NCBI RefSeq assembly: GCF_003991155.1
Contig: NZ_CP031293.1
From: Escherichia coli
Lineage (GTDB): Bacteria; Pseudomonadota; Gammaproteobacteria; Enterobacterales; Enterobacteriaceae
DNA: 64,000 nt
Strand: one strand, 5' to 3'
Below are positions 53,942 to 64,000 of this stretch, in pieces. Below the pieces are notes generated by a model. It saw only the letters and a list, made by a program, of their open reading frames with translations, was not told the origin of the DNA and did no database searches. Numbering within the stretch: position 1 is the first letter of the stretch; each line of letters starts with the position of its first letter. A program made the translations under genes and the position numbers.

Positions 53942-54017
53942 TCCTCTGTAGTTCAGTCGGTAGAACGGCGGACTGTTAATCCGTATGTCACTGGTTCGAG
54001 TCCAGTCAGAGGAGCCA
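53942..54017 (+). tRNA. asnT: tRNA-Asn (anticodon GTT)
   Basis: TCCTCTGTAGTTCAGTCGGTAGAACGGCGGACTGTTAATCCGTATGTCACTGGTTCGAGTCCAGTCAGAGGAGCCA, 76 nt. Confidence 0.93.
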
Positions 54018-54183
54018 AATTTTAGTCTTGAGACATCTCTATAAGTCTCAGGATAGTTAAAAAACAAGAACTTATCTTTACCCGGTTGTCTCGCAAGAGG
54101 CTGCTGGGTTTCTTGACATCCATAGTTTTTAGGGGCCTAATCAGGGGCCTCACGGTTCGGTGAGCAAACGGAGCCCCCACGCT

Positions 54184-55446
54184 ATGGCATTAACAGACAC
54201 CGCTATTCGCAAGACTAAACCCTCTGACAAACCCTTCAAAATGACGGACAGTTCTGGACTGTACCTGTTGATCAAACCTAACGGCTCAAAACTCTGGTAT
54301 ATGAAGTACCGCATCGACGGCAAAGAGAAGAAACTGGCCTTTGGCCCCTACCCGGAGATCTCCCTGTTGCAGGCTCGCCGCCTGCGCGAAACAGCACGCA
54401 ATAACATTCATGCAGGCGTCGATCCGGCTGCGGTGAAGCAAACCGAGAAACAGAAGAGGAAAAACGGGCAGACGTTCAGCCAGATCGCCATCAACTGGCA
54501 TAGCGAGCATAAACGCTGGTCTGAGCATTACGCGAAAACGGTTATGCGCAGGCTGGAAATGTACGTTTTCCCGGATATCGGGGATCGCCTTATCGAGGAG
54601 ATCGAAACGGAGGATTTGTTATTCACGTTGCGCAAGGTAGAGAGTAAAGGCTTTCTGGAAATCACCGCGCGGCTGAAAAACTACGTCACCGATATCATGC
54701 ACTACGCGATGAAAAAGAAACTGCTCAAAGCGAACCCGGCGCTGTATCTGGACGGTGAGTTTGCCGCGCCAGAAACCAGTCACTACCCGGCCCTGTCGCT
54801 GGATAAGTTGCCTGAGCTTTTATCCCGGACAGAGAATTACTGCGGCAGGCTGCTGACGAAATACGCCCTCAAACTTTCGCTGCTGTTTTTCGTGCGCTCC
54901 AGCGAGCTACGTTTTGCCCGCTGGAGTGAAATCGACTGGCAGCAAAAACTGTGGGTGATCCCGGAAGAACGCGAGCAGATCGAAAACGTGCGCTTCTCTT
55001 ACCGGGGGGCGAAAATGAAAATCCAGCACATTGTGCCGCTGTCGGATCAGGCGATTGCGATACTGAAGCAGATCGAGGCCCTCTCCGGGCATCTGGCCTT
55101 TATTTTTCCCGGCGAATACGACCAGAACAAGTGCATGAGCGACAACACCGTCAACAAGGCGCTGCGCGTGATGGGTTACGACACCAAAAAGGATATCTGC
55201 GGGCATGGCTTCCGGGCAATGGCCTGTAGTGCGCTGAGCGAATCGGGATTATGGAGCAAAGAAGCCATTGAAAAGCAGATGAGCCACCAGGAAAGAAACA
55301 GCGTCCGTGCTGCCTATATTCACAAGGCTGAATATCTGGAGGAACGGATCGAGATGATGCAGTGGTGGTCAGATTATCTTGATGCAAACAGTGACGGGTA
55401 TGTCTCGGCTTACCAGTATGCCCGCCGCCTAAAACAGGCGTCGTAA
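54184..55446 (+). CDS. P4-like tyrosine integrase of asnT-associated island
   Basis: MALTDTAIRKTKPSDKPFKMTDSSGLYLLIKPNGSKLWYMKYR N-terminus typical of P4-family integrases; directly downstream of the tRNA 3' end. Confidence 0.9.
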   Translation: MALTDTAIRKTKPSDKPFKMTDSSGLYLLIKPNGSKLWYMKYRIDGKEKKLAFGPYPEISLLQARRLRETARNNIHAGVDPAAVKQTEKQKRKNGQTFSQIAINWHSEHKRWSEHYAKTVMRRLEMYVFPDIGDRLIEEIETEDLLFTLRKVESKGFLEITARLKNYVTDIMHYAMKKKLLKANPALYLDGEFAAPETSHYPALSLDKLPELLSRTENYCGRLLTKYALKLSLLFFVRSSELRFARWSEIDWQQKLWVIPEEREQIENVRFSYRGAKMKIQHIVPLSDQAIAILKQIEALSGHLAFIFPGEYDQNKCMSDNTVNKALRVMGYDTKKDICGHGFRAMACSALSESGLWSKEAIEKQMSHQERNSVRAAYIHKAEYLEERIEMMQWWSDYLDANSDGYVSAYQYARRLKQAS

Positions 55447-61197: not shown

Positions 61198-61207
61198 CCC
61201 TGTCTCC

Positions 61208-64000
61208 TCAGTACAGCGTGTCCGACAGCCTGAACTGGCTGAAAAGCCCGCCACTGAATGGATTGTCCTCGGTGTCAGCGTGTATCCTGTAGACCATCGC
61301 GCCACCGTCCACGTTAAACCGCACGCTGAATGTCCCTGCCTCAACGCTGGTTAACTGCCCTGCCCCGAACAGGCGGAACTGCGCCCACGGCCCGGTGAAA
61401 CGGATGCTGCGCGGCGCTCCGCCGCTGACACCTATCAGCGTCAGTTTGCTTTCATTGCCTTCCCGCATATTGTTCGGCCACACCAGGTGGGCGGTATAGT
61501 TGCGGCCCTGGCTGTAATCGACTAACTGACCGTCGAGGTTCAGTACACTGCGCCGTTTGTTGCCGGAGAGCGATACCGTTTCCACCGCAAACTGCGTTCC
61601 CAGACCGTTTTGTTTACTGAAGAAGATGTCGCGAATCTTCTGCGCAGTATCCAGTTGCCGGATGATGTCCTCACGGATAATCACCCCGTCATCGCCATCA
61701 CGGCTCAGGTCATTTTCAATAAACAGTTTCAGGTTCTGCTGCCAGAATGTGTCCAGTACGCCATCCGGTTTAAAGAAACGCTCAAACGCATCCAGTGAGG
61801 CATCCTGCGCCGAGCGCGGATTAAACGGATAGTTACCGGCAAGCTGTTCATTGAACGGTTTCACCACGTTGTCACGCCAGTCAATTTCCATATAGTGAAC
61901 GGCCTCCACCATCACCACATGCCAGGCCTGGTCGGCCAGCTTGCCCACCCAGCGGTTAAGTGGCGCGGGCAGGGTTTTCGCCATCTGGCGGGTGGCGAAT
62001 ATCGGGTCGCTACTGTTCTGGTCCAGACGTAGCTGGACGGCTTTCAGCGCCGATTTCCCCGGCACCGGCGCGTTCTGGATCGCCAGCAGATAGCGGTGCA
62101 GTTCCGTTAACTGCTGGTACACCGCCTGCATGGTACTTTCTTTGTCCTTCTGCACCGCGAGCGTACTGTTTTCCGGGGCGAATTCATGCCCGAGGCGCGT
62201 CAGCAGGCGGTAGTCCGGCTCCGCCAGCGCGTCCTCCCGTTCTTTATCAGAGAGTTTTTCAGAGAGTACCGCAGGCTGCGTGTTATCACGCAGGGCAGTC
62301 AGCGCCCGCTGAAGTGGCTGGTCACCACTGATAATCTGCTCCAGCGCACCGGTCAGTTGCGCAATGGATTCATAATCCCGGACGTTCAGGTTATCCATCC
62401 CGGCCCGCCAGGTGGCGGTGTAGTCGCTGAGATACTGTTCAGTCAGCTGGCGCTGGATCTCTGTCTGGTCAGCGTCGCTGTATTTCACGCTGCGGGTGAG
62501 GTTGAGTACCCAGGAATCCATCGCCGTCAGTTCAACCAGTTCATCGCGCTGCTTCACAAAGTAGCTTTGCAGGCCGTAACGGGTGAGAAACTGCGGAACA
62601 ACCAGTTTGTTGTCATCGGCAGACGTGAACACCTGCTCAAAGGTCGGCCCCACCTGGTCACGCAGGTTAAGGTCAGCAGGCAGTACGCCCAGTGCCCGCG
62701 TTTTCAGGCTCTGGTAAACCCGCTGGTAGACAGGCAGTTTGCTCAGTTCTTTCTGTGCTGACACAACGGGCTTGTCATACGGCATCCAGCGGCTGATGGC
62801 GTCACCGTCACCCGCCTGACGCTCTGCGTGCCAGTCCGTGTGCGCCAGCGCGTAGTCAAGATGAGACATCAGTTGCGCCTGGATATCGCGCTGGCCGTGG
62901 AACTTTTCGCTCCAGCGTTTTGCCATATACTGCTTTACGACCTCATTATTACGTCCGCTTTTATCCTCCAGCATTCGCATCACGCGCAGCACAGCGAGTT
63001 TTTCCTCGCTCTCCGGCGGCGCGGCGTTCATCTCTTTGACCAGCCCGTTAAACAGGGCAGGCAAATAACGCTGCTCCAGCAGTTGCAGGTAGGTCTGCTC
63101 CACATACGGCCCGACACGCCGCCCCTGGTATAACCCCATATCCGCCAGGCGGCTGCGGTCGCCCCAGTCGCCATAAGCAAGAGTGGCATCACGTACCGGG
63201 TTCAGCAGCGGCAGTTGCAGGTTGCCATAGTCATCCATCCCCTGCGGGGGCGTGATATCCATAAACGCTTTCGCCTGCTTCAGCACCAGGACGCCGGAGG
63301 CATAGTTGTCATTGTAATAATGGTGCCAGCCGGTGATTAACAGCAGCGCCGCCACGCCGCCCGTTGCGGAAAAGGCGGTCAGGCGGCGGCGACTGCTGGT
63401 CAGCCAGGTCCGGCTCTCCGTTGCCAGGTTAGGCTCTGCCAGTAATGCCTGCGGGAACAGGTTGCGGGTGAAATACGGCGTGGTATCCACCAGCGGCCAG
63501 GCCGTCAGCGGACTGCTGCCCAGCCGGTACTGGCGGGCGGCGGACTGGGTAAAGATGTCATCCATCTGGCCGCGTTGCAGTGACGAGGTGAGATAGACGC
63601 CGCGCAGCATGACGTCCATGTTTTCGCCATCCAGCAATCCATCCAGCAGCGCCACCAGGGATTCCCGGCTTCCCTGCATCTGGCGGGCAAAGCTGAACAG
63701 GGAGCCACGCATATGGCTCTGCGCCAGCATCAGATCCGGCAGCGCCTGGTTCATTCGGTCACACCACGACTGCCAGAAGGCATTAAGTTCGCTTCGCCAG
63801 TCCTCGTTTTCATGGGCACGACGGGTGAACGTGACGCCCAGAATGGTGTCACGATCTTTTTTATCCAGTGACTGAAACAGCGTGGCAAAACCATGCAGCA
63901 GATCCAGCCGGGTCAGCACCACATAGACCGGCAACTGGCAGTGAAGCTGCTGGCGTACATCCTGGAGGCGGCTGCGCAGCGTCTGTAGCAGATACTCACG
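61208..64000 (-). CDS. tssM: Type VI secretion membrane protein TssM/IcmF (C-terminal part; N-terminus beyond window end)
   Basis: Open frame of more than 900 codons running to the window edge with TM segment and IcmF-like periplasmic region; followed by tssA and hcp. Confidence 0.75.
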   Translation of the reverse strand, partial: REYLLQTLRSRLQDVRQQLHCQLPVYVVLTRLDLLHGFATLFQSLDKKDRDTILGVTFTRRAHENEDWRSELNAFWQSWCDRMNQALPDLMLAQSHMRGSLFSFARQMQGSRESLVALLDGLLDGENMDVMLRGVYLTSSLQRGQMDDIFTQSAARQYRLGSSPLTAWPLVDTTPYFTRNLFPQALLAEPNLATESRTWLTSSRRRLTAFSATGGVAALLLITGWHHYYNDNYASGVLVLKQAKAFMDITPPQGMDDYGNLQLPLLNPVRDATLAYGDWGDRSRLADMGLYQGRRVGPYVEQTYLQLLEQRYLPALFNGLVKEMNAAPPESEEKLAVLRVMRMLEDKSGRNNEVVKQYMAKRWSEKFHGQRDIQAQLMSHLDYALAHTDWHAERQAGDGDAISRWMPYDKPVVSAQKELSKLPVYQRVYQSLKTRALGVLPADLNLRDQVGPTFEQVFTSADDNKLVVPQFLTRYGLQSYFVKQRDELVELTAMDSWVLNLTRSVKYSDADQTEIQRQLTEQYLSDYTATWRAGMDNLNVRDYESIAQLTGALEQIISGDQPLQRALTALRDNTQPAVLSEKLSDKEREDALAEPDYRLLTRLGHEFAPENSTLAVQKDKESTMQAVYQQLTELHRYLLAIQNAPVPGKSALKAVQLRLDQNSSDPIFATRQMAKTLPAPLNRWVGKLADQAWHVVMVEAVHYMEIDWRDNVVKPFNEQLAGNYPFNPRSAQDASLDAFERFFKPDGVLDTFWQQNLKLFIENDLSRDGDDGVIIREDIIRQLDTAQKIRDIFFSKQNGLGTQFAVETVSLSGNKRRSVLNLDGQLVDYSQGRNYTAHLVWPNNMREGNESKLTLIGVSGGAPRSIRFTGPWAQFRLFGAGQLTSVEAGTFSVRFNVDGGAMVYRIHADTEDNPFSGGLFSQFRLSDTLY

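Follow-up and report, generated by a model that had tools for sequence, protein, structure and literature searches.

Gene content of the locus

We analysed a stretch of Escherichia coli DNA of 64,000 nt, hereafter called the window, in which position 1 is the first letter and the features under study occupy positions 53942–64000. A tRNA-Asn gene, preceded by a tRNA-Ser gene and mtfA, is followed there by the gene of a P4-like tyrosine integrase (int1), the 5′ fragment of a toxin gene, an insertion sequence (IS) of the IS3 family, a truncated gene, a yafT-like gene and the first genes of a type VI secretion system (T6SS) (Table 1). Very probably, a composite genomic island some 45.7 kb long begins here, delimited by attL and attR, and its left 10 kb lie in the window; in this island the IS joins a complete T6SS cluster to the integrase module, and the degree of confidence given here applies jointly to the whole explanation developed below.

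Positions 53000–64000 were matched at 100% identity in 28 of the 5426 complete E. coli genomes that formed the comparison set, and one of these carriers, AR Bank #0349, has 0 mismatches to the window across 11,820 nt. Because it is identical to annotated complete genomes, the 11-kb stretch is not a chance pattern. A published sequence type (ST) exists for three carriers, MRY15-117 and MRY15-131 (PMC5430464) and CREC-544 (PMC9860340), and all three are ST457; where typed (3 carriers), the island is found almost exclusively in this multidrug-resistant lineage. It has a single arrangement across the 28 genomes and was absent from other species in a search of the Genome Taxonomy Database (GTDB) representatives. 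The guanine-plus-cytosine (GC) content of the whole island (50.2%) is not atypical, that of the T6SS core is 54.7%, and the T6SS genes inside the window reach 59–62%.

Table 1. Features of the island in the window, and related features outside it (given by locus number)
Feature	Position	Strand	Evidence or remark
tRNA-Asn (GTT)	53942–54017	+	ARAGORN
attL core, final 17 nt of tRNA-Asn, TCCAGTCAGAGGAGCCA	54001–54017		recurs perfectly or near-perfectly as attR at the far end of related islands
int1, intact P4-like tyrosine integrase, 420 aa	54184–55446	+	Pfam domains, similarity to P4 Int
RelE/ParE (HigB-like) toxin gene, 5′ fragment (56 codons + 1 nt)	55570–55738	+	TIGR02683, PHROG toxin family
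IS3-family IS (ISEc31-like), 1258 bp	55739–56996	-	inverted repeats, NF033516, second copy
IS inverted repeats	55739–55764 and 56971–56996		28-nt arms, 82% complementary, TG...CA ends
IS orfAB (orfA/orfB transposase)	55747–56924		
IS frameshift motif A-AAA-AAG	56658–56664	-	read in the sequence
Truncated gene	56997–57709	-	homologue lengths; no Pfam, PADLOC or PHROG match
YafT-like lipoprotein gene, lipobox LAGC	57989–58780	+	~81% nt identity to E. coli yafT
Small low-GC open reading frame (ORF) between hcp and yafT, 99 aa	58989–59288	-	ORF list
hcp (tssD), T6SS tube protein	59341–59820	-	TIGR03344, 193 bits (cut-off 58.9)
VasL-domain accessory protein	59842–61197	-	Pfam ImpA_N (TssA-type N-terminal) and VasL C-terminal domain
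tssM, 3′ four-fifths	61208–64000	-	TIGR03348, 742 bits (in-window part)
cbl-nac translocation	locus L001 47481–47497 and loci L005/L027		
IS-to-IS deletion	locus L005 12887–14064 vs locus L027 14310–43256		
Small islet examples	locus L005 4829–14064; locus L022 3686–20387		

The original prediction, made from the letters of the window, had placed a P4-family integrase directly downstream of tRNA-Asn, and this was confirmed. The int1 protein contains the Pfam domains Arm-DNA-bind_3, Phage_int_M and Phage_integrase, the catalytic R...HxxR...H...Y motifs are readable in its sequence, and it is 50.5% identical to the phage P4 integrase over 97% of its length (E 9e-130). With these three domains and this similarity it is a P4-like tyrosine integrase of the Arm-DNA-bind_3 type. 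Its score against NCBIfam PRK09692 is 257 bits, under the cut-off of 434, and therefore int1 lies outside that subfamily. Between int1 and its paralogue int2, encoded at the next tRNA-Asn gene, 7 residues differ, and the integrase query matches 107 E. coli genomes.

Island limits and the rearranged asn hotspot

The right end of the island was located by flank alignment and a 2-mismatch search, after an exact-match search for the tRNA 3′ end had given no distal repeat. This attR, CCCAGTCAGAGGAGCCC, lies 45.7 kb downstream and matches the tRNA 3′ end at 15 of 17 positions. It is directly followed by the native terminator of asnU and then by cbl, while about 85 bp on its island side are homologous to the islet family at the next tRNA-Asn gene. 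The distal att repeat proposed for checking in the original prediction thus exists, but on the flank of asnU by cbl and not on that of asnT. With its integrase at a tRNA 3′ end, its direct repeat and its patchy distribution (28/5426), the element is a tRNA-associated genomic island. The description of asnT as a classical site for such islands also holds, as asn tRNA genes host the high-pathogenicity island (HPI) and the pks island with P4-like integrases.

The gene order around the island was read in STEFF_1, whose tail past the third IS copy was taken from AR Bank #0349, where it is the same. From mtfA, a tRNA-Asn gene and the T6SS island lead to attR with the downstream flank of asnU, cbl and nac. 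They are followed by another tRNA-Asn gene with the second islet (int2, an intact toxin–antitoxin pair, Rhs, IS3 and PAAR genes) and an attR with the downstream flank of asnT. The order then continues with yeeJ, shiA, amn, yeeN and a third, decayed islet, and ends with asnW, yeeO, a tRNA-Asn gene with the downstream flank of asnV, and ldtA. The upstream flank of asnT is hence paired with the downstream flank of asnU, that of asnV with asnT, and that of asnU with asnV, so the tRNA-Asn flanks are cyclically permuted relative to strains such as A41. The tRNA-Asn gene beside mtfA is asnT by its left flank, and the right flank of the island is that of asnU. This permutation implies that cbl-nac and the island moved from asnU to asnT. 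The simplest reading is a two-step history, in which the island would first have inserted in asnU; a circle with the island and cbl-nac would then have been excised by recombination between asnU and asnV, and would have re-entered at asnT.

Two further observations were made in this region. By translocation, the cbl-nac pair has left its place between asnU and asnV and now lies just past asnT (loci L001 and L005/L027), whereas the rearrangements in pks-positive strains are inversions. A third P4-like integrase gene, by the minus-strand tRNA-Asn gene asnW (locus L005 18893–20155), is a pseudogene with an internal stop, which indicates a further decayed islet.

The whole 45.7-kb island might still be mobile, being excised and transferred by int1. 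The integrase is intact with visible catalytic motifs, both attachment sites are there, and sister islets, whose integrases are closely related, are found in different strains at asnT, asnV or further tRNA-Asn genes. However, attR retains only 15 of the 17 positions, and the island annotation lists neither an excisionase gene nor an AlpA gene. The single arrangement in the 28 genomes, the three typed carriers all being ST457, and the lack of the island in other species among the GTDB representatives argue in the same direction, and continued mobility of the whole island is considered unlikely.

The T6SS cluster

The original prediction had named hcp and tssM on the minus strand, the latter continuing past the end of the window, and both assignments are supported by their profiles. 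The full tssM gene extends to the window-equivalent position 64639 and encodes 1143 aa (939.6 bits against TIGR03348; coordinates from an identical genome). The gene between them had been described as TssA/VasL-like. The TssA models match only the N-terminal part of its product, below cut-off, and the true tssA is located beyond tssM. Judged by its domains, the gene is VasL and not the core component TssA, so that only one half of the earlier name stands.

Extension beyond 64 kb in identical complete genomes brought the full cluster into view. After tssM come tssA, vasI, tssH/clpV, tssL, tssK, tssJ, tagH, tssG, tssF, tssE, tssC and tssB, and then a divergent unit with a second hcp, vgrG, a DUF2169 gene and the gene of a PAAR-like Rhs protein of 1472 aa. 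The unit also has more Rhs tips with small genes behind them and two copies of ISAs1, of which one is frameshifted; several Rhs fragments lie at the edges of the island. When the core proteins were re-scored, all 13 of the 13 components (TssA–TssM), among them the products of tssB, tssC, tssK and tssL, whose lack would have spoken against the prediction, exceeded the curated NCBIfam cut-offs. No T6SS core gene carries a pseudogene flag in the annotation of AR Bank #0349, the carrier inspected, and the cluster looks complete and intact. Its gene order and accessory set (tagH, vasI, VasL/impA and yafT) are those of E. coli T6SS-2, subtype i1 of SecReT6.

By family membership, TssJLM would form the membrane complex that anchors the TssEFGK baseplate. 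The TssBC sheath would contract around the Hcp tube so that the VgrG/PAAR-Rhs spike is fired into neighbouring cells, with TssA priming the assembly and ClpV recycling the sheath. VasL presumably corresponds to the sheath-stopping protein of the TagA type of Vibrio cholerae. The system most likely serves contact-dependent killing of competing bacteria. An antibacterial role fits because the Rhs tips are followed by small genes; these are probably immunity genes by their position, and one of them is annotated as imm11-family. Systems of subtype i1 are generally antibacterial (PMC5422975).

A different reading is that the cluster is a decaying, non-functional remnant, similar to the short tssM′/VasL/hcp stubs that are common at aspV. 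Such clusters are frequent in E. coli, according to the megablast matches of the 23-kb core and the literature (PMC10562709); the edges of the island hold the IS3 element, both ISAs1 copies and the Rhs fragments, and the toxin–antitoxin module is destroyed. However, none of the 13 core genes or of the accessory genes is shortened, their products all exceed the cut-offs, the core is free of pseudogene flags in AR Bank #0349, and the match of 28 genomes to the 23-kb core at ≥99% identity argues against relaxed selection. A remnant is therefore quite unlikely. The locus had been predicted to be a T6SS island with signs of decay and rearrangement; the island and the rearrangement are borne out, but decay is confined to the edges and the apparatus itself appears intact.

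Origin of the T6SS block

The 1.8-kb integrase–toxin segment and its counterpart in the second islet share 98.2% identity. The T6SS block, in contrast, is collinear with the native E. coli cluster between aspV and yafT and just 78–87% identical to it. In megablast, the 23-kb core gave collinear matches to native clusters over 54–82%, and among all the genomes 28 matched it at ≥99% identity. These comparisons indicate that the history of the integrase/toxin module is not that of the T6SS block.

The yafT-like gene is the sole yafT copy in the carrier genomes, which have no second T6SS-2 copy either, and its identity of ~81% at the nucleotide level is to yafT in ~4000 E. coli genomes. The lipoprotein itself gave nothing useful in Pfam, PADLOC or PHROGs. 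Orthologues of yafT flank vasL-hcp in many Enterobacteriaceae, and the neighbouring orthologues carry the Pfam domain PF25851 YafT. The T6SS genes are 82–84% identical to clusters of E. albertii and Citrobacter, and identity to E. albertii rises to 91% in the segment with the truncated gene and yafT. In this species the T6SS and hcp are followed by yafT, a homologue of the truncated gene, alpA and further genes up to dnaQ and rnhA, which marks the aspV locus. In relatives (E. albertii and a Logan contig) an AlpA-containing island beside yafT begins with the homologue of this gene. At the closest Citrobacter locus tRNA-Asp adjoins yafT, and the arrangement tssM-VasL-hcp-yafT is kept in many genera, by tRNA-Asp, tRNA-Phe or tRNA-Ser. 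Since yafT and a fragment of the adjoining island were carried along, the block would have come from a locus of the aspV–yafT type. Most likely, it was cut out of the aspV-type locus of another Escherichia- or Citrobacter-like lineage.

A high-GC donor such as Klebsiella or Serratia had been suspected from the GC content of the T6SS genes inside the window, and was dropped as the GC content of the whole core resembles that of E. albertii and Citrobacter.

Alternatively, the block could be the lineage's own aspV cluster, relocated within the genome and not acquired. The carriers have no other yafT or T6SS-2, and the block includes yafT, which is normally at aspV. However, its identity to any other E. 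coli T6SS-2 is only 78–87%, while the flanking core genes are 95–99% identical between strains, and for the segment with yafT the nearer match is E. albertii (91%) and not E. coli yafT (81%). Relocation of a native cluster is thus very unlikely.

The acquisition of the block from another lineage and its proposed history and role have to be weighed against several points. The search for a donor among 100,044 species representatives found none, the best VasL being 86% identical and nearest to Citrobacter, and no remnant of a tRNA-Asp att site (≥12 nt, ≤1 mismatch) was found between the truncated gene and yafT. We infer the order of the two steps, asnU and then asnT, from the flanks only. The assignment to subtype i1 is based on collinearity, nucleotide similarity and the naming in the literature, and not on phylogeny. 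In the main Rhs effector, the toxin tip at the C-terminus matched no Pfam family, so that the target may be bacterial or host. The related cluster of enterohaemorrhagic E. coli (EHEC) is silenced by H-NS in vitro, yet it is functional and secretes Hcp (PMC5363993).

The IS element and the deletion junction

The fragment upstream of the IS belongs to a RelE/ParE-type toxin gene. Its ORF (55570–55743) has 57 codons, of which codon 57 and the stop come from the IS, and RefSeq annotates it as a pseudogene without a C-terminus. The intact paralogue encodes 105 aa and is adjoined by the antidote gene. In a base-by-base junction map, the fragment departs from this paralogue exactly at 55738/55739, where the IS starts. 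Each carrier genome has a single copy of the other 48 codons and of the antitoxin gene, and it lies in the second islet. This island therefore has neither a full-length toxin gene nor the adjacent cognate antitoxin gene of a RelE/ParE type II toxin–antitoxin module.

The element itself belongs to the IS3 family, with orfA/orfB joined by a -1 frameshift, a DDE transposase and TG...CA ends. Its transposase scores 260.8 bits against the IS3 model NF033516 (cut-off 160) and has a programmed frameshift in the existing annotation. The boundaries of the element are fixed by a second copy, 99.8% identical, elsewhere in this genome. The element is ~94% identical to elements annotated as ISEc31, and one carrier genome has 5 copies. 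Hence, the predicted addiction-module-type toxin gene, cut after 57 codons by an IS3-family element with inverted repeats, was verified by TIGR02683, NF033516 and the repeats. The target-site duplication that was to be looked for is absent, however: the flanks in IS orientation are CAC and GTT, without a 3-bp duplication. This implies that the IS copy lies at a rearrangement junction and leaves its membership in IS3 unaffected.

On the other side of the IS, the listed ORF of 242 aa (56981–57709) receives its last 4 codons and stop from the element. Its homologues have 297–308 aa, i.e. ~55 C-terminal codons are gone, and a Citrobacter homologue of 298 aa runs on beyond the junction ‘...QIST’. 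The fragment matched no family in Pfam, PADLOC or PHROGs. Because there is no target duplication and the genes on both sides are truncated, the IS marks a deletion. On this pattern, DNA has been lost on at least one side, and the IS is a deletion scar and not a simple insertion. Its insertion into the toxin gene of a continuous island without other loss is extremely improbable, because, although the toxin frame is broken exactly at the IS end and the element has proper inverted repeats, the flanks show no duplication, the rest of the toxin gene and the antitoxin gene are absent from the genome save for the paralogous copy, and the gene opposite lacks its C-terminal codons, with its stop codon inside the IS.

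The ISEc31-like element, as a deletion scar, now joins the T6SS block to the integrase module. The join removed the 3′ half of the toxin gene, the antitoxin gene and the 3′ end of the neighbouring gene, and may have arisen by recombination between two IS copies or by an IS-mediated adjacent deletion. Elsewhere in the ST457 lineage the IS demonstrably makes deletions, as the comparison of two carriers shows. STEFF_1 has two direct IS copies 27.8 kb apart, whereas AR Bank #0349 has one copy and the intervening DNA is gone (hyp310-PAAR-yeeJ-shiA-amn-yeeN and more). The genes shiA-amn-yeeN are absent from only 13 of the 5426 E. coli genomes. In AR Bank #0349, the second IS copy has ATG on either side. 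A target duplication was considered here and rejected, since STEFF_1 shows that the two flanks stem from different IS copies; the flank match is probably due to chance.

Comparison with known islands and clusters

The native yafT-impA cluster has been named i1 or T6SS-2 (PMC5422975); the latter label is that of Journet and Cascales, as used in papers citing them (PMC5422975, PMC10562709). Examples at aspV–yafT are z0243–z0275 of EHEC EDL933 and T6SS/1 of the mastitis-associated E. coli (MAEC) strain ECC-1470. They share with the island, in the same order, tssB, C, E, F, G, tagH, tssJ, K, L, clpV, vasI, tssA, tssM, VasL, hcp and yafT as well as hcp-vgrG-Rhs, and the aspV–yafT cluster also lies beside Rhs elements (PMC5422975). 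The island differs in its setting at tRNA-Asn with a P4-like integrase instead of at aspV, and in being the sole such cluster in its hosts. The clusters of E. albertii and Citrobacter have the same tssM-VasL-hcp-...-yafT arrangement, and VasL of the Citrobacter loci scanned is 74–86% identical to that of the island. They are chromosomal, at tRNA-Asp, tRNA-Phe or tRNA-Ser, and none is near enough to be the donor.

In its mode of entry, the island resembles the HPI (asnT) and the pks island (asnW/U/V), which also use a tRNA-Asn gene, a P4-like integrase and direct repeats of the tRNA 3′ end. However, its cargo is a secretion weapon while theirs is siderophore or colibactin synthesis, and its integrase is from a different islet family. 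The hotspot has four asn genes with documented inversions of the region (PMC8209727, PMC2941450); here cbl-nac is translocated, not merely inverted.

The closest relatives of the integrase module are the small Rhs-effector islets at tRNA-Asn genes, such as those at asnT in A41 and CRECJHTL34 and the second islet of ST457. Their integrase genes have 91–98% nucleotide identity to int1, they have the same att core and a homologous attR-proximal end, and some share the HigB/HigA-like module with the island family. They are 11–17 kb long, lie at asnT or asnV and contain only an orphan DUF2169-PAAR/Rhs toxin–immunity module, without a secretion apparatus. It would be a far-reaching scenario that a complete T6SS-2/i1 with yafT was lifted from an aspV locus of another Escherichia- or Citrobacter-like lineage into an islet that otherwise ferries orphan Rhs effectors, that such islets mobilise whole systems, and that the acquired cluster replaced the missing native one and aided ST457 in competition; we regard this scenario as doubtful.

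T6SS loci of E. coli were already known at aspV, metV/Z/W and pheU and on plasmids. For a T6SS island at a tRNA-Asn gene or in ST457, we found only a gene-list mention in the literature. All components of the island are of known kinds and the genomes are already annotated, and the general view of T6SS or of genomic islands is unchanged by these findings. Among the major determinants of competition between gut bacteria are T6SS clusters, and a complete one lies here in the asn-tRNA hotspot, whose more familiar occupants are the yersiniabactin and colibactin islands. ST457 is globally spread and multidrug-resistant and has many hosts, and the carrier genomes lack the usual aspV cluster. If active, the T6SS island would be a candidate fitness factor and could serve as a simple marker of the lineage. 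In addition, the locus preserves a clean series of rearrangements, mediated by IS and tRNA genes, that can be dated; the loss of shiA-amn-yeeN in a sub-lineage is one of them.

Other features of the region

The 99-aa ORF between hcp and yafT gave a weak match to PHROG_10601, a family of unknown function, and no significant Pfam match, and it was absent from related loci by tblastn. The gap between hcp and yafT is variable, with four different small ORFs in E. albertii, and this site could be a cargo or immunity slot.

Upstream of the tRNA-Ser gene, the window contains a first island (~31100–52700, from zinT to tRNA-Ser), which by its annotation is an integrative, probably mobilisable element. 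It encodes a tyrosine integrase, a MobQ relaxase, TraD, a PilV shufflon adhesin, a BfpA-like pilin, RepL and two H-NS paralogues. Inside it, on the minus strand at 43002–45066, lies a type I Thoeris anti-phage pair, with PADLOC scores of 284 bits for ThsB (TIR) and 672 bits for ThsA (SIR2). In A41, yodB is found between zinT and tRNA-Ser; it is not annotated in the window. A carrier genome (locus L005 25779–43696) also has a full pdu operon for propanediol utilisation with pocR and a cobalamin riboswitch, beside cobUST, while A41 has only a PduV fragment at this site.

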